Shown: one piece after another, positions 42,851 to 57,953 of the stretch
Numbering within the stretch: position 1 is the stretch's first letter
How the letters are laid out: every line of letters starts with the position of its first letter
Assembly: GCA_041441355.1 (NCBI GenBank)
Contig: JASDTF010000016.1
Coordinates: 56,899-120,898 of the forward strand
DNA: 64,000 nucleotides
Direction of reading: 5' to 3'
From: Propionivibrio sp.
Lineage (GTDB): Bacteria; Pseudomonadota; Gammaproteobacteria; Burkholderiales; Rhodocyclaceae
Program-made: the position numbers and the translations under genes
Notes under the pieces: generated by a model
What the model saw: the letters and a program-made list of their open reading frames with translations, nothing else
Told to the model about the DNA's origin: nothing
The model's database searches: none

Positions 42851-43737
42851 ATAAAGGCTTCCAGGCCGGTGTCTGCCTCGCCCTCGCGCTGGCGGCGGCG
42901 AACCTGCGCGCCGAAATCCAGGTGGTCGACGACGCCGGGCGCAGCGTGCGCCTCGCGCGCCCGGCGCAGCGCATCGTCACCCTCGCGCCGCACATGGCCG
43001 AAACGCTCTACGCCGCCGGCGCGGGCGAGCGCCTCGTCGGCACCGTCGAATTCAGCGACTACCCGCCGGAGGCGCAGAACGTGCGCCGCGTGGGCGGTTA
43101 CTCGCGCGTGGACCTCGAAGCCGTCGCCGCCTTGAAGCCCGACCTCGTGATCGGCTGGCAGAGCGGCAACGCGCCGGCGACGCTGGACGCGCTGCGCGCG
43201 CTGGGGCTGACGGTGTACGTCTCGCAGCCCGACCGCATCGAAGACGTGGCGCGCGAGATCGAGCGCTTTGGCCAACTGGCCGGGACGGAAAAAATCGCCC
43301 AGCCCAAGGCCGCCGAACTGCGCCGCCGCCAGGCTGCGCTGCGACGCGAATACGCTGGCCGGCCGACGGTGCGCGTCTTCTACCAGATCTGGAAACAGCC
43401 GCTCGCCACCATCGGCGGCAAGCAGATCATCTCCAGCGCGATCCGCCTCTGCGGCGGCGAGAACGTGTTTGCCGCGCTCGAAACCCTGGCGCCGACGGTG
43501 AGCGTCGAGGCCGTCATCGCTGCCAACCCCGAGGCCATCGTTGCCAGCGGCATGGACGCCGCGCGCCCCGAATGGCTGGACGACTGGAAGCGTTGGCCGA
43601 CGATCGCCGCCGTGGCGCGCGGCAACCTCTTCTTCGTCCCGCCCGAACTCATCCAGCGCCACACCCCGCGCCTCCTCGACGGCACCGAAATCCTCTGCCG
43701 CCAGCTTGAAAGCGCGCGCGAGCGGCGGCCCAAGTAA
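42847..43737 (+). CDS. btuF: Cobalamin-binding periplasmic protein
   Basis: Signal peptide; RIVTLAPHMAETLYA, SDYPPEA, ALKPDLV; cob context. Confidence 0.85.
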   Translation: MNKGFQAGVCLALALAAANLRAEIQVVDDAGRSVRLARPAQRIVTLAPHMAETLYAAGAGERLVGTVEFSDYPPEAQNVRRVGGYSRVDLEAVAALKPDLVIGWQSGNAPATLDALRALGLTVYVSQPDRIEDVAREIERFGQLAGTEKIAQPKAAELRRRQAALRREYAGRPTVRVFYQIWKQPLATIGGKQIISSAIRLCGGENVFAALETLAPTVSVEAVIAANPEAIVASGMDAARPEWLDDWKRWPTIAAVARGNLFFVPPELIQRHTPRLLDGTEILCRQLESARERRPK

Positions 43738-43897
43738 TTCCATTTCCAAATCCTCCGTGCCTTTGTCGACTTCGCCTTGCCGTGCTATTCGCACTGTCTG
43801 CGGCTCGTCTTCGTGGCACGAATGATTTAGAAATGGAATAAGACCGCCCGCTCGCCCGCGCCGGCACAGGCAAGGCCTTGTTTCATCATCGTTAGGA

Positions 43898-43939: not shown

Positions 43940-44016
43940 GCGCCCGTAGCTCAGTTGGATAGAGTACTGCCCTCCGAAGGCAGGGGTCGGACGTTCGAAT
44001 CGTCTCGGGCGCGCCA
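43940..44016 (+). tRNA. tRNA-Arg(CCG)
   Basis: 77 nt; acceptor GCGCCCG/CGGGCGC; anticodon stem CTGCC/GGCAG with loop CTCCGAA; TTCGAAT T-loop; encoded CCA. Confidence 0.97.
43995..44016 (+). repeat. attL core, 22-bp direct repeat (tRNA 3' end)
   Basis: tcgaatcgtctcgggcgcgcca, identical to 50122-50143. Confidence 0.93.
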
Positions 44017-44120
44017 AAGACTGTCTAAGGGGCTGATTCCGCAAGGGTTAGCCCTTTTTCATGCACTTACAGATGCCGTGCTGCTACACAGAGCTGTTAC
44101 ACAGCCGATAGAATCTTGGC

Positions 44121-45701
44121 ATGGACAAGGGCATGAAAGATCAAACGGGCCTCGTAAGGCGAGGTTCCATCTACTACTACCGGCAGCGCATTCCCACTGA
44201 CTTATTGCCCCACTTCGACAAAGCAGAAGTCTGGCGTTCTCTACGTACGTCGAACAAGACGGAAGCCAAGCAGCGTGCCAAGCTAGAGGCGCTGAAGTGG
44301 GAACAGGAATTCCACCAGAAGAGAAGTCTGCGGGAAACCTCCGAGGTTACGCAGATAAGCGCAGACGAGCTTGAGCGCCTTACCGCAATCTACTATGCGG
44401 AGCAGCTTGAGGGCGACGAGTACATTCGAGCTACTGGACGCCTCTCAGGCGGAGTGTTCGAGTCGTACGGGAAGGCCCTGGAGAAGTTCGACAACGAAGA
44501 CGGACGGCGGGTTGCTCAAGGAGTGACGGGCGAGCGGGACCAGGAAATGGACGCTTTCCTACAAGGCTACGGTATCCGGTTAGCGTCGGCGCCAGAACAA
44601 TACATGCTTACGGCGTATGCCTTTGCGAAGGTTCGGAAGCGTGTAGGGGAGGCTGTGCTAGCTCGGCAAAGAGGTCAGGTGGTTGATACGCCTATTCCTC
44701 CTGCATTTGCACTGCGTGTCGTTTCTGGCAGCAATGAAGGTGACAGCCTTGAAGCGTTGCTGAACTATTGGAAAACGCAGGGAGAGAAGGCACACCGGAC
44801 GCTGCTGGAAGCGAGTACCGCTGTACGGCTTTTCTCGGAATCGTTGCAAGGCATCCCTGCGTCCAGAATCACCAAAGTTCATGTGGTCGCCTTCAAGGAC
44901 AAACTGCTGGCCGAGGGCAAGGCGCCTGCGACCGTGTTAAAGCAAGTCGGGCTTCTCAAGGCGATATTCGAGACAGCCGCAGCGAACGGGAAGCTGTCCG
45001 GCAATCCGGCTCAGGGAGTGAAGGTTCCTCGCCCAAAGATTGAGCAGAAAAAGCGTGTCTCGTTCTCTGCGACAGACCTTTCCGCAATCTTCAATTCTCC
45101 GGTATTCACTCAAGGGGCAAGGCCGCTCGGAGGACGCGGAGAGGCCGCCTACTGGATTCCTCTGCTCGGCCTCTGGTCGGGTGCCCGCCTTGAGGAAATC
45201 GGGCAGTTACTCACAACAAATGTGGAGGAAGAGGACGGTATTCATTTTCTGCGCATTACCCATGACGCAGAAGCTGGGCAGACCGTGAAGACAGCAACAT
45301 CACGGCGTCGCGTTCCGCTCCATCCTGAGCTGATTCGTTTGGGCTTCTTGGACTACGTTCGCAACTTGGAGAGAGAAGGGACCGCGCGCCTATTCCCGTT
45401 GTTGGTCTCGGGGGCTTCCCGCCAATTGACGGCAAGCTGGTCTCAGTGGTGGGGGCGCTATCTCCGTAAGGAGGTCAAAATCACCGACAGCCGCAAGGTG
45501 TTCCACTCTTTCCGTCACGGCTTCAAAGATGCCTGCCGAGATAGTGACATTCCGAAAGAGTTGAACGACCGCCTGACAGGGCACGGCGGCGGCGGCGTTG
45601 GAGATAGTTATGGTGCCGATGATTACCCGCTCCGTCCGTTGGCTGATGCAATGAACAAGTTGCGGTATCGCGGTCTGGATTTGGCCCACCTTGCGATGTA
45701 G
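44121..45701 (+). CDS. Tyrosine integrase with DUF6538-like N-terminus
   Basis: RRGSIYYYRQRIP; catalytic R (GARLEEI), K, HSFRH, GH, Y; start may be 44133. Confidence 0.92.
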   Translation: MDKGMKDQTGLVRRGSIYYYRQRIPTDLLPHFDKAEVWRSLRTSNKTEAKQRAKLEALKWEQEFHQKRSLRETSEVTQISADELERLTAIYYAEQLEGDEYIRATGRLSGGVFESYGKALEKFDNEDGRRVAQGVTGERDQEMDAFLQGYGIRLASAPEQYMLTAYAFAKVRKRVGEAVLARQRGQVVDTPIPPAFALRVVSGSNEGDSLEALLNYWKTQGEKAHRTLLEASTAVRLFSESLQGIPASRITKVHVVAFKDKLLAEGKAPATVLKQVGLLKAIFETAAANGKLSGNPAQGVKVPRPKIEQKKRVSFSATDLSAIFNSPVFTQGARPLGGRGEAAYWIPLLGLWSGARLEEIGQLLTTNVEEEDGIHFLRITHDAEAGQTVKTATSRRRVPLHPELIRLGFLDYVRNLEREGTARLFPLLVSGASRQLTASWSQWWGRYLRKEVKITDSRKVFHSFRHGFKDACRDSDIPKELNDRLTGHGGGGVGDSYGADDYPLRPLADAMNKLRYRGLDLAHLAM

Positions 45702-45883
45702 GAGGCGGCGGGGCGTACGTGCCAGCATGTTGTGCGTAAAAACAGGGGATCACCGTTGAACGTGGAATCCCCTGCCAGAAGCTTCGGGGTATGAAATTTC
45801 ACCCCCGTAGAAGTGCAGACTGAAGAGGTCTGACGACCCCTCCAGTTCTCTTTAGATGCCCGTGCTGGGGCGGATGTGGAGGT

Positions 45884-46717
45884 TCAGAACTCCGGTTCCT
45901 CTTCTTCTAGGCCAAGGTCGGAGACATCGACCACGCCATGCCAGTACTCCGCAAAGAAGCTCGGCAGGCTCCTGTCGTAATGCTCCAGTGCTCGTGCCAG
46001 AACTTCGGGCATGCCGTGTCGTTGGAAGCGATGCCCTAGGAGCTGCATGAGTTTGCCTGCAAGCTGCTTCGCTTCCTCCTCCATCGCGGCATCCCAATCC
46101 TTGTTCTCGTCCATTTCCTTGCCGTCTGCTTCGCTCCTTGCTCGCGGCCAAGAAATTTCCGTCAGGTCCCGTTCAGGCTCCTTCTGGAGCAGCGTCCGTT
46201 TGGTGGCTCGCATGGTAAAGACTTGCCGCTCCGAGACGGTCGATGCAAGGGCGATGGCCTTGGCGCTGGCCTCTCCTTTTGTAGTCAAGACGACCAACTC
46301 CCATGCCGCTTGTGCTTGCTCGCGCTTCGTCATTTGGAGTTTTGTAGGTGCGTTGGACTGGACCGACCTGAGCATGGCGCTGACGACCGTGCCGCGATGG
46401 ACCTGAACCGGCACAGGGTCCTTCTTGGGCCATCTGCCGACTTCGTAAGCATCCAGACGGTGGTGACCGTCGATGCAATACCAGCCATCCCCGCCCCACC
46501 AGACGAGCAGCGCTTCTAGCGCCTGCCCATCTTTGACCTTCCGTGCCATCTCGTGAATGTGCGTCCGGCTCGCATATTCCGCTGGTCGTCGGAATTGGTA
46601 CAACTCCGGGATCCGCTTGATGTCGCCGAGAAGGAGGCTCTTCGGGTCCTCGGGAGGGGGCTGCGTACCACTCTTGACCTTCCGTTCAAGCGCCTGTCGT
46701 GCTTCTGGTCTGCTCAT
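45884..46717 (-). CDS. ParB/Srx-like N-terminal domain protein
   Basis: LEALLVWW..WYCIDGHHRLDAY motif; acidic tail; GGAGA RBS. Confidence 0.7.
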   Translation of the reverse strand: MSRPEARQALERKVKSGTQPPPEDPKSLLLGDIKRIPELYQFRRPAEYASRTHIHEMARKVKDGQALEALLVWWGGDGWYCIDGHHRLDAYEVGRWPKKDPVPVQVHRGTVVSAMLRSVQSNAPTKLQMTKREQAQAAWELVVLTTKGEASAKAIALASTVSERQVFTMRATKRTLLQKEPERDLTEISWPRARSEADGKEMDENKDWDAAMEEEAKQLAGKLMQLLGHRFQRHGMPEVLARALEHYDRSLPSFFAEYWHGVVDVSDLGLEEEEPEF

Positions 46718-46904
46718 TGCGTTCTCCACGTTCTACATTCATTCGTTGATGCTCGGCCAGGATGATGGCAAGCGTTTGGTTGTTGTTCAGCCGGACCCCC
46801 TGTGCCCTTTCGCGGGAACGTTGGAAGTCCTTGAGGTAATCGAAGGATGCGACCGAGAAAGCCACTTGCCGGAAGACAAGTGCTGCGGGCTTGTGCGCCG
46901 TCAT
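46686..46904 (-). CDS. 72-aa hypothetical protein, possible ribbon-helix-helix
   Basis: beta (FRQVAFS)-helix-helix pattern; overlaps the ParB-like start. Confidence 0.55.
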   Translation of the reverse strand: MTAHKPAALVFRQVAFSVASFDYLKDFQRSRERAQGVRLNNNQTLAIILAEHQRMNVERGERNEQTRSTTGA

Positions 46905-46908
46905 GGGC

Positions 46909-47235
46909 TTACTCTTCCCAGGGCGCTGCGCTGGCGTTGGGGCCGGAGGTTGGCGACTCCCCGCGAACGGTCTTGGGTATTGCCTCCTGCTCGTCAAAGA
47001 GGGCGAGGAATTCAGCGTTCGGCTTAGTCTTCTTGTTGAGCGTGTTGCGGGCATAGGCGAACTCCCAGGCAATCGGCTCATACGTACCGTTCTTTACGGC
47101 ATGGTGGTAGCGTCCAAGGGCTTTCTTCAAAGCCTGACTCGGCGCACCACCAGGGGACAGCGCCCATGAATTGAGGGCGTCGATAATCTCCTTCAGGTCA
47201 CCCGAACGGGTTGCGAGGTTGGTTGCGTACTTCAC
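46909..47235 (-). CDS. 108-aa hypothetical protein
   Basis: GTG start with GGAGA RBS; ends 4 nt before the next ORF in an apparent operon. Confidence 0.6.
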   Translation of the reverse strand: MKYATNLATRSGDLKEIIDALNSWALSPGGAPSQALKKALGRYHHAVKNGTYEPIAWEFAYARNTLNKKTKPNAEFLALFDEQEAIPKTVRGESPTSGPNASAAPWEE

Positions 47236-47374
47236 GTCTGTTTCTCCATTGGTTGGGTTAGGGGGCGCACAAAGATCACGCTCCAGTCGGAAGGAGCGTT
47301 TTCTCTATGCGATAGCTAGGTTTTATCGCCAAAACCCGCCTCAAACCCTTGCCAATCAAGGCTTTCAGAGCGAC

Positions 47375-47397
47375 AAAAAGGGCCGCCGAAGCGACCC
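47375..47397 (-). terminator. Intrinsic terminator of the 336-aa cargo gene
   Basis: Minus strand gggtcgc-ttcg-gcggccc-ttttt. Confidence 0.75.
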
Positions 47398-47454
47398 GCG
47401 TTTGATCTGCAGAAGCAGCTTCAAATCCTTCGCAGCATTGTCATCCAAACATTT

Positions 47455-48462
47455 CTACGAAAAATTAGAGGTACTGTGCTCTGCTGCAGGAGTCCAGATT
47501 GCTCCCTCTGGAATCGAATCCAAAATCCCTGTTTCTTCGTTCAGGCGCTCAAAGAACAATGTGGTTTGATGCTCTCTTTTCCTTCCATGAAGAACACTCA
47601 CAGCGAGTTGTGTATCAGGATTGAAGAACCCTACCGAGGCGTTTTTGGAGATAAATAAGATTGCTCGCTCCGTGGCGTGCTGTTGAGCATAAACCTCCTC
47701 TGCGTAGTCAAGCTCTCTCCGAATGGTGATGGCTCGTTCGACTGCCAGAACAGATGAACCATCCATCGAAATGCCAAATCCTGGGGTCAAAAACATCTTC
47801 CCAGCGAGCGTGATAGGCACAGACACTCCACTTCTGCGTAGAGCAATGTAATCCGCAGCCGAATGCTGTTTCCCAGGCAGAATCCCTTTGAGTTCAAACC
47901 TGTCGATGGTTTCAGGCCAATTGCGATAGAGCGTCTCAAGAAGTTCGATCTTGCCCCATAGATCCCCGAATCCCCTCCCGTGCGGGACCACATCGATTAG
48001 GTAAGCTGCGTCATCAGTAAGGCGCGCTATCAAGACTCGACGGGAGCGCATAACCCGCCCACCTTTGCCTTCCAAGTCTGCGCCAAGATGAAAATGCAGG
48101 AGACCCCAGTCAGCAAAGAAGATGTCGTGGTTCGCCCACTTTCGTTTTCTATCGTTGTTACTACGCCTTCGAATTGAGGCTGTCGTATCGCCAAGAAAAG
48201 ACAGAAGAGAACCGCCCCTCGCCATTGCGGAACAGAGCTGCCGAATGCCGCTTAGTTCATAAGGCGACAGAATGCGCTCATGCGTAAGGACGTCAGAGAA
48301 ATAAATGCGCCTGGTTCTTCTGGACGGAATCCTACCAAGCCACTCAATGACATCAATGAGCCGCAACTCTGGTTTTGGGGGTAGGGGCGATTGCGTTTTC
48401 TCATAGACATCTGCAAGGAGAATCGGCAAGTCTCTACACCAAATCAGAGCATCATCCTTCAT
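47455..48462 (-). CDS. Hypothetical cargo protein, 335 aa, with DWGLLHFHLG motif (possibly YafO/RelE-like RNase)
   Basis: Low-GC long ORF with RBS and its own terminator; HFHL...SRRVLIAR...AYLIDVVPHG pattern. Confidence 0.7.
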   Translation of the reverse strand: MKDDALIWCRDLPILLADVYEKTQSPLPPKPELRLIDVIEWLGRIPSRRTRRIYFSDVLTHERILSPYELSGIRQLCSAMARGGSLLSFLGDTTASIRRRSNNDRKRKWANHDIFFADWGLLHFHLGADLEGKGGRVMRSRRVLIARLTDDAAYLIDVVPHGRGFGDLWGKIELLETLYRNWPETIDRFELKGILPGKQHSAADYIALRRSGVSVPITLAGKMFLTPGFGISMDGSSVLAVERAITIRRELDYAEEVYAQQHATERAILFISKNASVGFFNPDTQLAVSVLHGRKREHQTTLFFERLNEETGILDSIPEGAIWTPAAEHSTSNFS

Positions 48463-48511
48463 CTCAGAGCGCTCCTCAGAAGGGGGCAAAGTCAAGGAAA
48501 ATGCCGTCAAG

Positions 48512-48540
48512 TTGTCGTGAACAGGATTGTCGAATACTAT
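48512..48540 (+). promoter_or_regulatory. Sigma70 promoter of the cargo membrane gene
   Basis: TTGTCG-17-TACTAT, 29 nt before ATG 48570. Confidence 0.65.
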
Positions 48541-48569
48541 GCTTTCAGAATGTGACTGTAGAGGCTTCT

Positions 48570-48974
48570 ATGGAAACAATCCTGGCCAACCTTGCAGACC
48601 CTTCGTGGTGGTTTAGTAGCTTTTTCCCCGCTGTGGTCATCATTTTGCTCCCACGGTTATTTAGGCCGCTGTGGGCGCGCACAAAAATATTCCTAAGAAC
48701 TCGCCGCGCAAAAGAACTCAGCAAAATTAAAAGACTCCGCTGGGACGATATGCAAATTACTTACGAGATGCAGAAGGCTGCCGCCTTGCTTGTCATCTTT
48801 ATTCTGTCCATCGTCCTGGCCCTTGTGTCGCTCCTCTTAAGCCCCGTCACCAAATCGACGCTGCATGTCATTATCGTAAGCATTCCGATTCTGTGGTCAG
48901 AACTGGCTTGGTTGTCACGTGACAAGCTCGTGAAGGAAGTGATTCTGTACCGTAAAAAACTGAATCGACCGTAA
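48570..48974 (+). CDS. Hypothetical 134-aa membrane protein (about 3 TM)
   Basis: GAGG RBS; hydrophobic segments separated by a basic linker (RTRRAKELSKIKRLR); low GC. Confidence 0.72.
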   Translation: METILANLADPSWWFSSFFPAVVIILLPRLFRPLWARTKIFLRTRRAKELSKIKRLRWDDMQITYEMQKAAALLVIFILSIVLALVSLLLSPVTKSTLHVIIVSIPILWSELAWLSRDKLVKEVILYRKKLNRP

Positions 48975-48984
48975 AAACAGGGAA

Positions 48985-49551
48985 TCAGGCAGACGCCTTC
49001 AGATACTGATACAGGGTCTCCCGGCTGATACCGTACTCCTTGGCGAGGGCCGCCTTGTTGCTCTTGGGCTCCCCTGCCTTGGCCTTCAGTTCCTCCACCT
49101 GGGCCGCTGTAAGGGCCTTCTTGCGTCCCTTATAGACGCCCTTGGCCTTGGCGATGGCGATGCCCTCCCGCTGCCGCTCACGGATCAAGGACCGCTCAAA
49201 CTCAGCCACCGCTCCCAGCATCGTCAGTAGCAGGTGCGACATGGGCGAGTCATCCCCGGTGAAGGTCAACCCTTCCTTGTGGAAGCGAACCACGACGCCC
49301 CTTCCGGTCAGCCCCTTGACGATGCCCCGGAGGTCATCAACGTTACGGGCGAGACGGTCCATCGAATGAACGTGGAAGGTGTCCCCCTCCCGGAGGTAGT
49401 CCAAGGCGGTCTGTAGTTCGGGGCGGGCGACATCCTTCCCGCTGGCCTTGTCGGTGAAGGTCTTATCGAGAGGGACGCCTTCAAGCTGCCTGTCGGTGTT
49501 CTGGTCCAGTGTCGAGACACGGACGTAGCCAATGTGCTTGCCTTTGCTCAT
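48985..49551 (-). CDS. tnpR: Serine recombinase/resolvase, Tn21/Tn501 TnpR-like
   Basis: GYVRVSTLDQN, DKASGKD, HSMDRLARN, AEFERSLIRERQREGI, C-terminal HTH. Confidence 0.93.
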   Translation of the reverse strand: MSKGKHIGYVRVSTLDQNTDRQLEGVPLDKTFTDKASGKDVARPELQTALDYLREGDTFHVHSMDRLARNVDDLRGIVKGLTGRGVVVRFHKEGLTFTGDDSPMSHLLLTMLGAVAEFERSLIRERQREGIAIAKAKGVYKGRKKALTAAQVEELKAKAGEPKSNKAALAKEYGISRETLYQYLKASA

Positions 49552-49572
49552 GGAGGTCTTCCCTGGTTGAAG

Positions 49573-49692
49573 TGTCAGGAAAGACTCTAAGACGTACAAT
49601 GGCTTGTGTCAAGAAAATCCAAAATGGACCCTATCCCTACGCACCTGAAGGGGCCTGGCTGACGTCAGGCTGGCCTACACCCCACACTGACG
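49573..49692 (-). promoter_or_regulatory. Three-subsite res site (Tn21-like)
   Basis: Site I CGTCAG-N18-CTGACG (49663-49692); minus-strand GGATAGGGTCCATTTTGGATTTTCTTGACA and GTCTTAGAGTCTTTCCTGACA resemble Tn21 sites II/III as recalled. Confidence 0.8.
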
Positions 49693-50121
49693 ACGGCACC
49701 AGGACACAAGGAAGAAGGCTGTTTGTGGTCGTGACCCGTGATGCCTCGGGCGTTCCACTCAGCTTAAGAAGGGGCCCGGCCCGTAAGGTGATGGGCACAA
49801 GATGGGAGGTGACTTACCCCATACGGGGGGAGTTCTCAGGAGCGAGAATATCGTATGCCCTCTCGGATTTTCCCAGCAAAACATTCTGCCCTTGCTTGTC
49901 GGTTGAGGACACGTTTGGAGGGCGTAACGCTCTGGGGCGTTCGGCTGGCGAGAGCAGAAGAGCCTCCGATAGAACTGTAGTCGAGGTATTTTTCGCTTCT
50001 AGGTGATTATTGTGAGAGAATGCGCACCCTGCGGTGCAGGATAGCACCACAAACCTGTTACACAGCTGTTTTGACTGGCCGTCGTAAGTGCTTCAAAGAC
50101 AAGAGATTTATCTCTGGTTCC

Positions 50122-50143
50122 TCGAATCGTCTCGGGCGCGCCA
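50122..50143 (+). repeat. attR core, 22-bp direct repeat
   Basis: tcgaatcgtctcgggcgcgcca, identical to 43995-44016. Confidence 0.93.
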
Positions 50144-50192
50144 GTTCAAAATCGAGAGCCGGCCGACAGGTTGGTTTTTGTTTTTTGGCAGC

Positions 50193-50269
50193 GCGCCCGT
50201 AGCTCAGTTGGATAGAGTACTTGGCTACGAACCAAGGGGTCGGGCGTTCGAATCGCTCCGGGCGCGCCA
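50193..50269 (+). tRNA. tRNA-Arg(ACG)
   Basis: 77 nt; anticodon stem CTTGG/CCAAG with loop CTACGAA; encoded CCA. Confidence 0.97.
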
Positions 50270-50276
50270 AGAATTG

Positions 50277-50310
50277 AATGGGCTAGGTGATCATCACCTA
50301 GCCCATTTTT
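50277..50310. terminator. Bidirectional intrinsic terminator
   Basis: aatgggctaggtgat-c-atcacctagcccatt followed by a T-run. Confidence 0.88.
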
Positions 50311-50352
50311 ATTTTGCGCAAACCCGTGCCGGTGCGGGATGATTTGTTTTGG

Positions 50353-52026
50353 CTAATGCGCAATCTGGAACCGTCCGACGTCATCTCGCAAGCGGATTGC
50401 CAGGTGATCGAGTTGAGTGGCGGTGTCGGCCACCGTTTCCATGGAGTGGTTGTTGCCGTCGATCATCTGCGCGATGGTTTCGACGCGCCCTGCAATGTCC
50501 TGGCTGGCGACGGCTTGCTCTCTGAGTGCGCGGGAGACATCGTCCACGATCGCGACCACCTGCGTTGCGCCTCCGAGGATGGCCTCGATGGAGGCGCCAG
50601 TTTTTTCTGCAATGGCCATGCCTGCTTTCACTTGCTCGACCGACAAGGTCATTTGCGAAGCCATGGCTTGAGCGCCTTGCTGCATGGATGTAATCATGGT
50701 GGCGATCTCTTGGGCCGAGGTGCCGGTTTTCTCCGCTAGTTTTCGAACTTCATCGGCAACCACCGCAAAGCCGCGGCCTTGTTCTCCGGCGCGGGCGGCT
50801 TCAATGGCCGCATTTAGGGCCAGCAGATTGGTCTGGTCGGCCACTTCCTTGATCACGGCAGTGACATTGGAGACTTGGTCCGAAGCCTTTTGAAGCGCCT
50901 CGGCCGATTGTGCAGCGGTTTCTATGGATCGGGCGATGAGGCCGATGTCATGGACCATGGCGTGGATCTGTTCAGAGCCTTTTTGGGCTGCTTGGCCCGA
51001 TTCGCTCGAAATGCGTTGCGCTTCGGCGGACAAGTCCGAGACGTGCGTGATGCTCGTCGACATTTCTTCCAGTGCTGCTGCCATCGAGGCGGTGGACTCC
51101 GACTGTTCTTCGGAGCCTTTGAGAACCTGGGCAGAAATCGCGTTGAGCCCGTTGGATGCGTTTCCAAGATCCACGGACTGTGCTTGAAGGTCGCGCAGCA
51201 TTCTGGAAAGTTCGGAGACCATCGTCACCGTTGCACGCTGCAGGCGTGCCAGTTCATCCTTGCGGGATGTGTCGACTTGGATGCGCACGGTGAGATCGCC
51301 AGCAGAAACTTTTTCCATGGTGCTGACCGTTTCATTCAAAGGAGAGACGATCGATTTTCCGAGGGCGAGACCGAAAAGCACCAAGGAGACGACAGCAGCA
51401 AAGAAAACCGAAATGGCTGCCGTCTGCGCAAAACTGGCGGCATTGAGCGCGAAATCCACACTCTTTTTTGCTTCCCTTGTATTTAATTCGATGATGGCTT
51501 GAAGGCTTTCGCCAAGTTCGCGAGTGATTGCGCGACGTGTTTCCACCATTTTTTGGTGCTCATTGGCCGCATTGCGCAAGGACTCGTCGCTTAGATTGTC
51601 GATCGTGGATTTGTGGATGGTGAGTACTTTTTTCTCCAGTTCAAACCAGTTGTTCCATGTCCCGTGAAATTTATTCCAAGCGGCCTGTTCTTCTGCATCC
51701 GCAGGCAAGGCTTGGTATTGTTTGATCGCGTTTTCCGCGCGTTTGATCGCATCCAGCTTGCGGGTGTAGGCAATTTCGATCTCTGCCTTTTTCTTTTCCA
51801 AGGAAGGGAGGCGATCCGCAGCGGTAAAGGTGTAGAGGTTGCGAGACAGGTCAGTGATGGCTTCTTTGATGACCAGAAGGTAATTGACCGATGGCATCCG
51901 ATTGTGCCCGATGTCGGCAATCGCGGCGTTATTCTTGGCGAGGCCAATGACGCCGACCCCACCCACAATCAGAATTGCCAAGCAACTGACAGCAATCAGA
52001 AGAAGTAATTTTTTTTGAATTGTCAT
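50353..52026 (-). CDS. Methyl-accepting chemotaxis protein (4HB sensor-HAMP-MCP)
   Basis: Two TM segments; [35 protein letters not shown]. Confidence 0.95.
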
Positions 52027-52596
52027 TGCTGCTCCCGCGGCGGTTTGATTGATACGGATTCCTGCGTGCACGACTTTGATTCAGGGCTTGAAAAACAGTC
52101 GATGGAACGTTCTTTCAGATTGATCTGAGACGACTCCCGGGTTACAAACTGTCCAAAACAATCGAGGGGAGGTGATGGCGCGCAGGTCGCCACGGAAAGC
52201 ATGACGGCCGGCACGGGCCAGGCTTTGCGGCGCCTTTTCTGATGCCGCGTCCTCCGTAACCAAATCTAAGTCCACAATTTTGGTGTGGGCAATAATTGTT
52301 TTACGGTTACCAAGCCCTTGGAACGACAAATGTCTTTCAGCCAACGACGGGGCAATTTTCCGGAGCCAAGCGCTTGTGTTTCGACAAGGGTCCGGGGGCA
52401 CGAAGGCGCCCGCTCCGGGCTATGACCTTCGTTTGATTTGTGAATGGGTTTTTTTGTGGTAAAAACGCAGCGCCCAGTAGGGGCATGCTGCGTTTTCGTG
52501 CCCGGCGACCGTTGTCGCGGGGCGCCTGATCCCGGCATCCGGACTGCATTTCAGTACTCCCGCAGCTTCTCCCGCCGCACTTTCGAGCCGTTGTTC

Positions 52597-53670
52597 ATGA
52601 GCGCTTTTTTAACGCCCCCCTGGTTTCCGCGAGCCAAAAAAATCTTCTGGTTGTCCGTCGTTTTTGGCGTCGTGGCCTGGTCGCTCTGGCTCTTGTACTT
52701 GAAGTTGTGCGCTGAAGTTGCGAGCGACCCGGCCGCGCGCGCGCTGCTGGTCTCGGGCGGGTTCTGGGTCAGCCTCAAGGTCATTGCCGAATCGATCGGC
52801 AGCAGCATCTGCAACGTTTCCAAGGCGAGCTATATGCTGGCCGCAGCGTCGGCGCTGCTGGCCTACGCGGCGTTGGCGTGGTACGACCGCATTGCGCTGA
52901 TCCACCTCAATCGCCAGGACGAGATTTCCTGGCCTTTCGTGGCCTCGTGCTCGTTCGTGACCTATGCGCTGGGGCACAACATCGGGGCCTCGGTGCTGTC
53001 GGGCGGGCTGGTGCGCCTGCGGGCCTACGGCTCCTGCGGGCTCAGCGCGGCAGAAGTCGCCATCCTCGTCGCCTTGTGTTCATTCACCTTTGCCTACGGC
53101 ACCGTGCTGTTGACGGGTTTTGTCCTGTTCGTCGAGCCGGAGATCGTCCAGCCCTTGGCCACGCTCATCCCGCGGCTCGACCTGCCCGCGGGGGTGGTTC
53201 AGGCGGTGGGGGCGACGATGCTGGGGCTGTGCGCGCTTTACGTGCTTGGCTCGTGGCGCCACTTCAAGCCGCTGCATTTCCGCTCGGTGCATATCGTCTA
53301 TCCGCGTCTGCCCGTGGTGGTTCGGCAGCTGATCGCCGCGCCGCTGGAGCTGATCGCCGCGGCGGGCATCATTTACTTCGTGCTGCCGGAGACGGGGAAC
53401 CCCGGTTTCCTGGTGGTCCTCGGCGCCTTCATGCTCTCGTTCTCGGCGGGTTTGCTGTCGCAGACCCCGGGCGGGATCGGCGTCATGGAAGCCGTCTTCC
53501 TGGCGCTTTTGCCTTCGGTGCCCCCATCCGACACCGTCGCCGCGCTCCTCATCTGGCGCCTGATGTACCTCATGATTCCCTTGGCCCTGTCGGTGCCGCT
53601 CATCGTGGCCTTCGAACGCCTCCAGCTGCGCGACGGCGGCAAGAAGCTGGCGGCCTCGCCCGCGAACTGA
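52597..53670 (+). CDS. Lysylphosphatidylglycerol synthase TM-domain/flippase-like protein (YbhN/UPF0104)
   Basis: YALGHNIGASVLSGGLVRLRAY, SQTPGGIGVMEA, AALLIWRLMY. Confidence 0.82.
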   Translation: MSAFLTPPWFPRAKKIFWLSVVFGVVAWSLWLLYLKLCAEVASDPAARALLVSGGFWVSLKVIAESIGSSICNVSKASYMLAAASALLAYAALAWYDRIALIHLNRQDEISWPFVASCSFVTYALGHNIGASVLSGGLVRLRAYGSCGLSAAEVAILVALCSFTFAYGTVLLTGFVLFVEPEIVQPLATLIPRLDLPAGVVQAVGATMLGLCALYVLGSWRHFKPLHFRSVHIVYPRLPVVVRQLIAAPLELIAAAGIIYFVLPETGNPGFLVVLGAFMLSFSAGLLSQTPGGIGVMEAVFLALLPSVPPSDTVAALLIWRLMYLMIPLALSVPLIVAFERLQLRDGGKKLAASPAN

Positions 53671-56736: not shown

Positions 56737-57953
56737 GGGCGGTGGCCGAACCTTTCCTTCGTTTGGCGGCGTCCAACCTGGCGGCGCAGTCGGCCCAGCA
56801 GATCGGACTGGCGGCGGCGCCGCTGGTGGCGGTGCTGGCCCTGGGCAGCGACGTGGCCGGCACCGGGCTGCTGCAGGTGGCGCAGACCTTGCCCTTCCTC
56901 TTGTTCGCGGTGCCTTTGGGCGTGCTCGCCGACCGTACCGCGCGCCGCCGCCTGATGGCGGCGGGCGAACTGCTGCGGGCCGTGGCCTTCCTCGCCATCG
57001 TGGCGCTGGCGGCGGCGGGAAAGCTGGATTTGCTCGGCTTGGCGCTGCTGGCCTTTGTCGGTACCGTCGGCGCGGTGGCCTACAGCGTGGCCACGCCGGC
57101 CTTGATCCCCGCGCTGGTGCCGCACACGCGGCTGGCGCGCGCCAACAGCCAGATCGAACTGGTGCGCAGCCTGGCGCTGACGGGCGGGCCGGCCCTGGCC
57201 GGCCTGCTGGTCGGGCTGACCGGCGTCGGCGTCGCCTTCACCCTGGCCGCCGGCCTGTCGGTGCTTGCCGCCGCAGCCCTGATCGGCCTGCCCGAAGGGC
57301 CGGTGCGGCTGGGCGCGCGCCGCGCGTTCGCCACCGAGTTGTGCGAGGGCGCGGTCTTCGCGTTCAAGCAGCCCTTGCTGCGGCCGATGCTGGTCACCTC
57401 GATGCTCTTCAACATCGCTTACGTGGCCTTGCAGACGGCCTACGTGCCTTATGCGGTGCGGCAGCTGGGCCTGAGCGGCGGCGGCATCGGCCTGACCCTC
57501 GCCGCGTATGGCGTAGGCATGGTGACCTTCGCGGTGGCGATGCCCTTCATCATCCGGCGCTGGCGGGCCGGCGCGCAGCTGGTCATCGGCCCCTATGGTG
57601 CGCTCGTCGCCAGCGCCGCGATGCTGGCGACGCTGTACTGGCCGTCGGCGTGGCTGGCCGGCCTGTGCTTCTTCATCCTCGGCACCGGGTCGGTGTCCTG
57701 GAGCGTGACGGCCACCACCCTGCGTCAGGCGGTGACGCCGCCGTCGCTGCTGGGGCGGGTGTCGTCGCTGAACACGCTGGCCACCTACGGGGCGCGCCCG
57801 CTGGGCGCCGCGCTGGCCGCCGCGGTCGGCTTGCTGGGCGGCGAGGTGGCCTGCCTGGCCTTCTCGGCCTTGTGCTTCGCGGTCCAGGCGGTCTATCTCG
57901 CCGTTTCTCCCGTCCCCCGCTTGTCCCGCCTGCCCGAACCGACGGAGCGTTGA
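56733..57953 (+). CDS. MFS transporter (DHA3/macrolide-efflux-like)
   Basis: About 12 TM; GVLADRTARRRLM motif A; LRQAVTPPSLLGRVSS; ATGA overlap with ada. Confidence 0.85.
   Translation: MRAVAEPFLRLAASNLAAQSAQQIGLAAAPLVAVLALGSDVAGTGLLQVAQTLPFLLFAVPLGVLADRTARRRLMAAGELLRAVAFLAIVALAAAGKLDLLGLALLAFVGTVGAVAYSVATPALIPALVPHTRLARANSQIELVRSLALTGGPALAGLLVGLTGVGVAFTLAAGLSVLAAAALIGLPEGPVRLGARRAFATELCEGAVFAFKQPLLRPMLVTSMLFNIAYVALQTAYVPYAVRQLGLSGGGIGLTLAAYGVGMVTFAVAMPFIIRRWRAGAQLVIGPYGALVASAAMLATLYWPSAWLAGLCFFILGTGSVSWSVTATTLRQAVTPPSLLGRVSSLNTLATYGARPLGAALAAAVGLLGGEVACLAFSALCFAVQAVYLAVSPVPRLSRLPEPTER

Follow-up and report, generated by a model that had tools for sequence, protein, structure and literature searches.

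In many genomic islands with defence, resistance or virulence genes, the integrase is the only feature that accounts for persistence or movement. A compact and well-delimited case, with seven genes and a family of relatives around it, sits in a tRNA-Arg(CCG) gene of a Propionivibrio sp. genome (Rhodocyclaceae; GenBank assembly GCA_041441355.1, contig JASDTF010000016.1). The stretch that we analysed, 64,000 nucleotides long (contig positions 56,899 to 120,898), is called the window, and its numbering is used throughout. What kind of element is this, and how could so few genes keep it in a population? We find that it is an intact 6.1-kb integrative island, one member of a widespread and unnamed family of small islands of about 5-10 kb that integrate into tRNA genes. 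This placement is far more secure than the roles given below to its ParB-like protein and its res site. On balance we favour a joint reading, to which we give a probability of roughly 0.55, in which the integrase would drive excision of the island, the resolvase would act at res to resolve its circular or multimeric forms, the ParB-like protein would bind or regulate at a nearby dyad, and outside help would bring about transfer.

The limits of the island are set by a tRNA gene and the duplication of its 3′ end:

43940-44016, + strand: tRNA-Arg(CCG), the integration target, whose last 22 nt are the attL core (ARAGORN; Rfam tRNA, 62.8 bits)
43995-44016, + strand: attL core, the left copy of the exact 22-bp direct repeat TCGAATCGTCTCGGGCGCGCCA
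50122-50143, + strand: attR core, the right copy of TCGAATCGTCTCGGGCGCGCCA
50193-50269, + strand: the neighbouring tRNA-Arg(ACG) (ARAGORN)

An earlier interpretation made from the letters of this DNA (the sequence-only reading) had described an exact 22-bp duplication of the attachment site (att) in tRNA-Arg(CCG), starting in the T-loop. We find the repeat at both ends, and all of the structural claims of that reading were borne out on checking. The two copies are spaced by 6127 bp. The repeat begins in the tRNA T-loop and duplicates the tRNA 3′ end, and tRNA-Arg(CCG) stays intact. These are the only two occurrences of the 22-mer in the 3.2-Mb assembly, and the chance expectation for an exact 22-mer pair in 8.5 kb is about 2e-6. 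GC content is 0.55 inside the element versus 0.70 in its flanks. Apart from the two tRNAs, an Rfam scan of the island identified no other non-coding RNA.

Inside the left repeat lie an integrase gene (int) and one arm of the predicted attP; the other arm precedes the right repeat:

44029-44060, + strand: hairpin and T-run supplied by the element, directly 3′ of the rebuilt tRNA
44063-44070, + strand: GCACTTAC, candidate accessory-protein site of attP, with an inverted partner at 50084-50091
44081-44104, + strand: two tandem candidate arm-type integrase sites, CTGCTACACAG and CTGTTACACAG
44121/44133-45701, + strand: tyrosine integrase whose N-terminal domain is DUF6538 (526 aa from 44121, 522 aa from 44133)
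49820-50121, + strand: right arm of attP, with the four blocks that follow
49823-49832: G-rich block of the right arm
near 49985-49995: AT-rich block of the right arm
50055-50065: candidate arm-type site CTGTTACACAG of the right arm
50084-50091: GTAAGTGC of the right arm

All open reading frames (ORFs) of the island were scanned with hidden Markov models against Pfam, NCBIfam, PHROGs and PADLOC. The integrase, for which an intact enzyme of the DUF6538 type had been proposed, matches PF20172 (DUF6538) at 1e-20 and the integrase family phrog_1 at 1e-29. It has the full catalytic set R356-K390-H462-R465-H488-Y497, which is invariant in an alignment of 24 relatives, and its 522-aa start (44133) is the gene call in metagenome copies. 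The DUF6538 domain is presumed to be the arm-binding domain, matched by CTGYTACACAG sites on both sides of the core; our literature search found no paper with the term DUF6538. The motif CTG(C/T)TACACAG occurs three times in the 64-kb window, each time in an att arm. The tandem pair, 65-88 bp inside attL, closely precedes the int -10 box (TAGAAT, 44109-44114), and the third site lies 57-67 bp inside attR. In three relatives whose integrases are 53-60% identical to this one (L082, L083 and L085), the motif is found at the same positions, and the 300 bp beside attR contain the same series of blocks in the same order despite differing cargo. An inverted pair (10 bp) matching GCACTTAC and its right-arm partner is also present in L085. 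The hairpin and T-run of the element take the place of the native tRNA terminator, now located beyond attR at about 50153-50185, and a hairpin and T-run also follow the tRNA in L085 and L083. The motif copies are those expected for the arm-type sites of a complex attP, and by this anatomy the att sites look functional.

The 3′ end of the neighbouring tRNA-Arg(ACG) is likely a secondary att site. It is identical to the 22-bp core at 19 of 22 positions, and the tRNA-Arg(ACG) core is the primary target of L082 and L083. Population variants bear on the same region. More than 20 metagenome contigs, found via the exact resolvase protein, contain the element at 99.7-100% identity with all genes intact. 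In the variant L200 (ERR12379733), the left core is of the CCG type and the tRNA-Arg(ACG) core follows the right arm in a precise junction (contig positions 6134-6155); 104 bp corresponding to 50144-50247 are missing, including the 5′ part of tRNA-Arg(ACG). Recombination of attR with the nearby ACG core by the integrase would be expected to give such a junction. In two further contigs (L201, positions 1-1560; L202, positions 1-1090), the tRNA to the left of the element is represented by its last 52 nt only and is accompanied by a different integrase gene (398 aa, Phage_integrase), an arrangement that points to a tandem array with a second island at tRNA-Arg(CCG). One variant, L195 (ERZ28614148), has an internal deletion (45511-46664) that removes the 3′ end of int and most of the parB gene.

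The sequence-only reading had suggested looking for elements with the same backbone and variable cargo, and took a lack of relatives sharing the backbone as the sign of a decayed remnant. The search, run here, returned two loci that qualify, and the outcome favours that reading. The metagenome contig L105 (5.9 kb) matches 43988-47425 (att core, int, parB and orf108) at 96% identity and then continues into different genes. L102 is 90% identical at the nucleotide level over 45733-47402 (the parB operon) and 48973-49681 (the resolvase gene and most of res), with other genes in between and an integrase that is only 27% identical. Because the same backbone recurs with different cargo, the island is not a decayed remnant. 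The ratio of nonsynonymous to synonymous substitution rates (dN/dS) between the window and L102 is 0.09 for parB, 0.25 for the 72-aa gene, 0.17 for orf108 and 0.07 for the resolvase gene. Purifying selection thus acts on these four genes of the backbone.

Many related att-delimited elements, 4.9-10 kb in size, occur in other tRNA genes. Five of them are:

L082, 6.4 kb: tRNA-Arg(ACG)-type core
L083, 6.6 kb: tRNA-Arg(ACG)
L085, 8.6 kb: tRNA-Arg-type core
L106, 8.3 kb: another tRNA
L056, 4.9 kb: tRNA-Glu, with essentially only int, a parB-like gene and a recombinase gene

Among 81 loci fetched through the ParB-like protein, many of which are short contigs, the recombinase gene lies upstream on the same strand in 38 and an integrase is present in 33. 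In the recurrent arrangement the recombinase gene is followed by about 0.8 kb of small genes, then by parB and an integrase gene in convergent orientation. A small serine recombinase is present in 12 of the 16 loci in which a tRNA-derived repeat bounds 10 kb or less beside a DUF6538 integrase. Directly beyond attR of the 6.6-kb element in L083 (contig positions 16391-18004) we observed a gene for a 537-aa large serine recombinase, which is probably the start of a further tandem element.

Between the integrase gene and the cargo lies an operon on the opposite strand, together with a dyad and a short motif that we consider with it:

45735-45752, - strand: 18-bp junction motif, the 3′ half and T-run of the parB-operon terminator on this strand
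45786-45806: dyad GGGGTA-TGAAATTTCA-CCCCC, 83 nt after the parB stop, with its core TGAAATTTCA at 45792-45801
45884-46717, - strand: parB, encoding an orphan ParB-like protein of 277 aa with a ParB/Srx N-domain, a DGHHR motif and then a helix-turn-helix region
46686-46904, - strand: gene for a 72-aa protein, whose stop region overlaps the parB start
46909-47235, - strand: orf108, encoding a 108-aa protein, the first gene of the parB operon
48970-48987, - strand: second copy of the junction motif (17/18), at the outer edge of cargo slot 1 and overlapping the resolvase stop codon

The ParB-like assignment, also made from the letters alone, is supported both by a family profile and by structure prediction. 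Pfam returned no match for the single sequence. With a profile built from 36 relatives, matches in the PDB included ParB chains (9e-6) and sulfiredoxins (3e-5). The AlphaFold2 (AF2) model has a mean predicted local distance difference test (pLDDT) score of 86.7, and Foldseek aligns it with ParB, Noc and KorB over 150-230 columns that include the N-domain and the helix-turn-helix. No ParA-like ORF was found in the island (Pfam, NCBIfam and PHROGs) or in the elements of the relatives. The family comprises 842 metagenome clusters at 50% identity (E <= 1e-30); it is scarce in species-representative genomes (a single weak match in 400). Homologues are absent from collections of 72,556 plasmids and 50,697 phages, and one of the 81 ParB-like loci came from the viral collection IMG/VR.

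The two small proteins of the operon differ in their distribution. The 72-aa protein is conserved with ParB in seven elements, and orf108 is lineage-specific, with homologues in only three clusters at 90% identity, too few for predicting its fold. AF2 predicts an extended N-terminal segment and two helices for the 72-aa protein; Foldseek gave no match below E = 3 in support of a guessed ribbon-helix-helix fold. Pfam at E up to 10 gave nothing useful for the 72-aa, 108-aa and cargo proteins. In L111 (contig positions 1791-2456), from a more distant clade, one 221-aa protein with a Cys/His-rich N-terminus lies between the recombinase and parB genes, occupying the place of orf108 and the 72-aa protein.

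The dyad is a candidate binding site of the ParB-like protein, either parS-like or an operator. In most relatives a dyad of the type TGCAATTGCA follows the parB stop, on whichever side the integrase lies. Its letters vary by lineage (TGAAATTTCA here; also TTCAATTTGAA and GTCCACAATGGAC) and its symmetry is kept. The perfect arm of the dyad averages 4.1 nt across 72 distinct loci, versus 1.65 nt in coding controls.

Near the dyad, the junction motif is a side observation. A sequence of 18-30 bp ending in CCCCTGTTTTT is found at module boundaries in the window and in L102, L106, L107, L110 and L127. The similarity between the window and L102 begins exactly at the two window copies, and the partial copy at the resolvase stop stands without the other half of the hairpin. 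We considered the CCCCTGTTTTT motif as a family-wide recombination site and rejected it, given that its occurrence is limited to close relatives and that it consists mostly of the parB terminator's 3′ half.

At the other end of the island are a recombinase gene and its upstream region:

48985-49551, - strand: small serine recombinase, 188 aa (PF00239 at 7e-35)
49552-49692, - strand: res region with the resolvase promoter
49612-49584, - strand: resolvase promoter TTGACA-17-TAGAGT (promoter scan)
49663-49692: res site I, CGTCAG-N18-CTGACG

In the Tn21 subgroup of transposons, res lies upstream of tnpR. The recombinase of the island is 65% identical to the TnpR resolvase of a Tn21-family transposon on pAKD16, and the 140 bp upstream of its gene are collinear, block by block, with the region upstream of the pAKD16 tnpR. 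The blocks are a distal CGTCAG-N18-CTGACG site, a middle block and a proximal block overlapping the promoter, and they are kept in L102, L106, L022 and L019, whose recombinases are 57-91% identical. When the DNA of the island was compared with the 72,556 plasmids and the phages, matches were confined to the resolvase gene, resembling tnpR of the Tn21/Tn3 family. The resolvase and res that had been proposed are thus real, given the PF00239 match and the alignment with a Tn21-family tnpR region, and the module is Tn21-like. With a single res per chromosome, the resolvase can only act on multimers, on tandem copies or on a second element. As a separate observation, the point at which the similarity between the window and L102 stops (about 49681 in the window, about 5336 in L102) is no more than about 5 bp from the centre of res site I, and the outer half of site I in L102 has no recognisable resolvase half-site. 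This stop could reflect res-mediated exchange or insertion at res.

What does the island carry? The sequence-only reading counted two cargo genes, which we locate between the parB operon and the resolvase gene:

47380-47397, - strand: terminator-like hairpin after cargo gene 1, at the inner edge of cargo slot 1
47455-48462, - strand: cargo gene 1, encoding a PD-T4-7-like protein (335 aa as called in metagenome copies; ORF open to 48510)
48570-48974, + strand: cargo gene 2, encoding a 134-aa membrane protein whose hydrophobic spans lie near residues 12-30, 64-97 and 96-115

Cargo gene 1 is predicted to be a PD-T4-7-like anti-phage gene. Its 335-aa product matches both PADLOC models for PD-T4-7 (PDLC04066 at 7e-37 and PDLC04065 at 3e-20), which its discoverers describe as a toxin-antitoxin-like abortive-infection system of E. 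coli (Vassallo et al. 2022, PMC9519451). The island differs from that system in host, in mobile context and in the adjacent membrane protein gene. Similarity to the relatives ends at 47402 (L102) and 47425 (L105), the inner edge of the slot, and similarity to L102 resumes at 48973, its outer edge. The interval 47403/47426-48972, from the resolvase stop to the terminator before orf108, is a cargo slot because the content of L102 and L105 differs there. Defence candidates are also found in other members of the family: L085 encodes a TIR protein that matches PDC-S35, and L106 encodes a PDC-S31 protein. These two genes lie directly outside res, in a second slot between res and attR that is empty in the window. 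Bro-N and KilA-N genes occur in the cargo slot of relatives, with Bro-N in L102.

Does the element belong to a known class? The sequence-only reading recognised no relaxase, primase, Rep, capsid or transposase, and none appeared in our scans. It had also concluded that the island is not a typical integrative and mobilizable element (IME), phage-inducible chromosomal island (PICI) or prophage, and the marks of all three classes were indeed missing. No ORF matched a relaxase family (Pfam, NCBIfam and PHROGs), the canonical mark of an IME. [quoted passage not shown] There were no structural, lysis or terminase genes, and PHROGs matches were limited to the integrase, the ParB-like protein and an invertase/resolvase. 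Neither a TnpA transposase (ORF scans) nor long terminal inverted repeats, the marks of Tn3-family transposons, were present. What the island does have is a tRNA-integrating integrase, a Tn21-type res/resolvase module and a ParB-fold protein. It fits the helper-dependent integrative islands, which are a known kind of element. A backbone that combines an integrase, an orphan ParB-like protein and a Tn21-type res is not described for such islands in two reviews (PMC5704250, PMC11389934).

From this anatomy, the favoured reading can be set out as follows. The integrase, via its N-terminal domain on the CTGYTACACAG arm sites, would excise a 6.1-kb circle and reinsert it at tRNA-Arg cores. Resolvase acting at res would reduce dimers, tandem arrays or incoming concatemers to monomers. 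The dyad would be bound by the ParB-like protein together with its 72-aa partner, and this binding may either retain the non-replicating circle or silence island genes in the manner of KorB. The cargo would pay the host for carriage by aborting phage infection. Movement from cell to cell would depend on a helper or a passive route (a conjugative element, a transducing phage or transformation), because the island has no transfer or replication genes. Both the extrachromosomal stage and the helper dependence are suggested by the anatomy of the element.

Several points weigh against this reading. The ParB-like protein has DGHHR in place of GERRxR, the CTP-binding motif of clamp-forming ParBs. The island contains no ParA, Rep, origin features or DnaA boxes, so that a partition role on a non-replicating circle is not obviously useful. 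No recombination directionality factor (RDF) was recognised, and there is no circular contig among all fetched loci. Among 30 relatives there is no clean empty site: btuF-tRNA-Arg(CCG) is conserved and the DNA downstream is non-syntenic. Congeners lack a clean attB because the DNA downstream of tRNA-Arg(CCG) is unrelated to the right flank in the window. Exact-protein look-ups of the flanking methyl-accepting chemotaxis protein (MCP) and BtuF likewise gave contigs that end at the tRNA or at a repeat, with no empty site. The near-identical copies are all at one chromosomal locus and therefore give no evidence of recent movement between sites or hosts, and the L200 junction could also have arisen by slippage between two similar cores.

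A bolder form of the favoured reading, which we put forward tentatively and consider rather unlikely, is that the family forms a distinct class of non-replicating ‘integrative mini-plasmids’. In these, att with the integrase and res with the resolvase would split the circle into two exchangeable arcs, and the ParB-like protein would act as a clamp that maintains it. If so, co-resident elements could swap integrase modules and defence cargo at att and res, with an orphan ParB-like clamp loaded at the dyad as the sole means of maintenance or regulation. Footprints of such swaps would then be seen in the points where similarity between the window and L102 breaks off, one at the parB terminator and one a few bases from the centre of site I.

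Among the explanations that compete with the favoured reading, the best survivor, although improbable in our view, is a relaxase-less IME, of the kind described as iOriT IMEs, mobilizable genomic islands (MGIs) or ‘hitcher’ islands. Here, a conjugative element resident in the same cell would supply a relaxase that nicks non-coding DNA resembling an origin of transfer (oriT) in the excised island, and a pore through which the island passes. Such elements are documented (PMC5704250, PMC11389934), and the island resembles them in its small size, its tyrosine integrase, its lack of a relaxase and of mating-pore genes, its short direct repeats at the 3′ end of a gene and its presumed dependence on a helper. 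A few IMEs even encode a ParB homologue, which possibly aids in keeping the excised form (PMC5704250, PMC11389934). Also in favour of this explanation, a stretch of some 190 bp (49693-49880) that separates res from the conserved att arm is unaccounted for. However, no oriT or mimic of one was recognised in the island, nor was a mobI-type gene or an RDF, in contrast to MGIs. No stretch of its non-coding DNA recurs elsewhere in the assembly. The 94%-complete assembly also has no VirB4-type ATPase, though bins often lose plasmids and integrative and conjugative elements (ICEs).

Less probable still is a satellite comparable to the PICMIs of Vibrionaceae, for which a helper phage would trigger excision, a concatemer would be packaged, and res with the resolvase would restore monomer circles before integration. 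The likeness lies in the size of about 6 kb, the few genes, the integrase, the host-protecting cargo and the lack of capsid genes, and PICMIs are packaged as concatemers and protect their host (PMC10803314). Other features also fit: the Bro-N and KilA-N genes in the cargo slot of relatives are typical of phage-related regulators, DUF6538 integrases are also found in IMG/VR proviruses, and the resolvase would allow monomerisation independent of recA. PICMIs, on the other hand, encode replication proteins and integrate next to fis (PMC10803314), whereas the island lacks a replication gene, inserts into tRNA-Arg and encodes a resolvase and a ParB-like protein instead. The core replication functions of PICMIs are absent (no primase or Rep), as is AlpA, and without replication a concatemer cannot form. 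The scarcity of the ParB-like family among viral sequences (the single IMG/VR locus and the absence from phage records given above) also argues against a satellite.

A third explanation, which we consider very unlikely, is that the serine recombinase, res and the ParB-like operon are a portable module, derived from a transposon or plasmid, that rides on islands and has a regulatory or cargo-shuffling role. Consistent with this, L102 combines a 90% identical module with an unrelated (27%) integrase, and the similarity has its limits at the parB terminator (45733) and within res site I (about 49681). The defence genes of L085 and L106 lie directly outside res, and the fold matches include KorB, a ParB-type repressor. 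The likeness to Tn21-subgroup TnpR and res, in the 65% identical resolvase and the collinear 140-bp region with site I, is plain. Unlike a transposon of that subgroup, however, the island has no TnpA and no 38-bp terminal repeats, and the module lies inside an island bounded by an integrase system. The ParB-like family was not found on plasmids, and the breakpoint in L102, where the outer half of site I is unrecognisable, may have another origin. Comparison with the ParB, Noc and KorB clamps is similarly mixed. The island protein resembles them in its predicted N-domain and helix-turn-helix and in a palindrome beside the gene, like parS. It differs from them in the absence of ParA, in DGHHR for GERRxR and in a C-terminal part unlike known dimerisation domains. 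KorB has a small partner, KorA, which the co-transcribed 72-aa partner of the island recalls.

The weakest explanation, an immobile relic of a larger ICE, plasmid or prophage fixed in the chromosome with a resident defence gene, could draw on the lack of observed excision, the 99.9%-identical copies all at one locus and the deleted variant L195, but it is highly improbable in view of a compact backbone that is intact in many independent 4.9-10 kb elements at different tRNAs, genes under purifying selection, exact att cores with conserved arm sites, and cargo and integrase modules exchanged between close relatives.

In the favoured reading, the island combines three separable, predicted site-specific DNA functions, namely the pairing of integrase and att, of resolvase and res, and of the ParB-like protein and the dyad. 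The family could thus reveal the least equipment that a hitch-hiking island needs, and how anti-phage genes are exchanged between islands. The ParB-like family, with its 842 metagenome clusters and none in the plasmid and phage collections, would be a new context for ParB-type proteins.

The surroundings of the island provide some further observations. The DNA 3′ of tRNA-Arg(CCG) varies among five congeneric genomes (L096-L100) and differs from that in the window. This tRNA gene is therefore a variable hotspot, its downstream DNA changing from genome to genome. Between btuF and tRNA-Arg(CCG), window positions 43734-43844 hold a short repeat that is present in many copies across genomes of the genus and in several copies in the present assembly, and metagenome contigs end at this repeat. 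Beyond tRNA-Arg(ACG), the MCP (chemoreceptor) gene at 50300-52600 has a GC content of 0.55, versus 0.69-0.70 around it. No direct repeat of the tRNA-Arg(ACG) end delimits a second island around this low-GC gene, which may be an older acquisition at the same hotspot.

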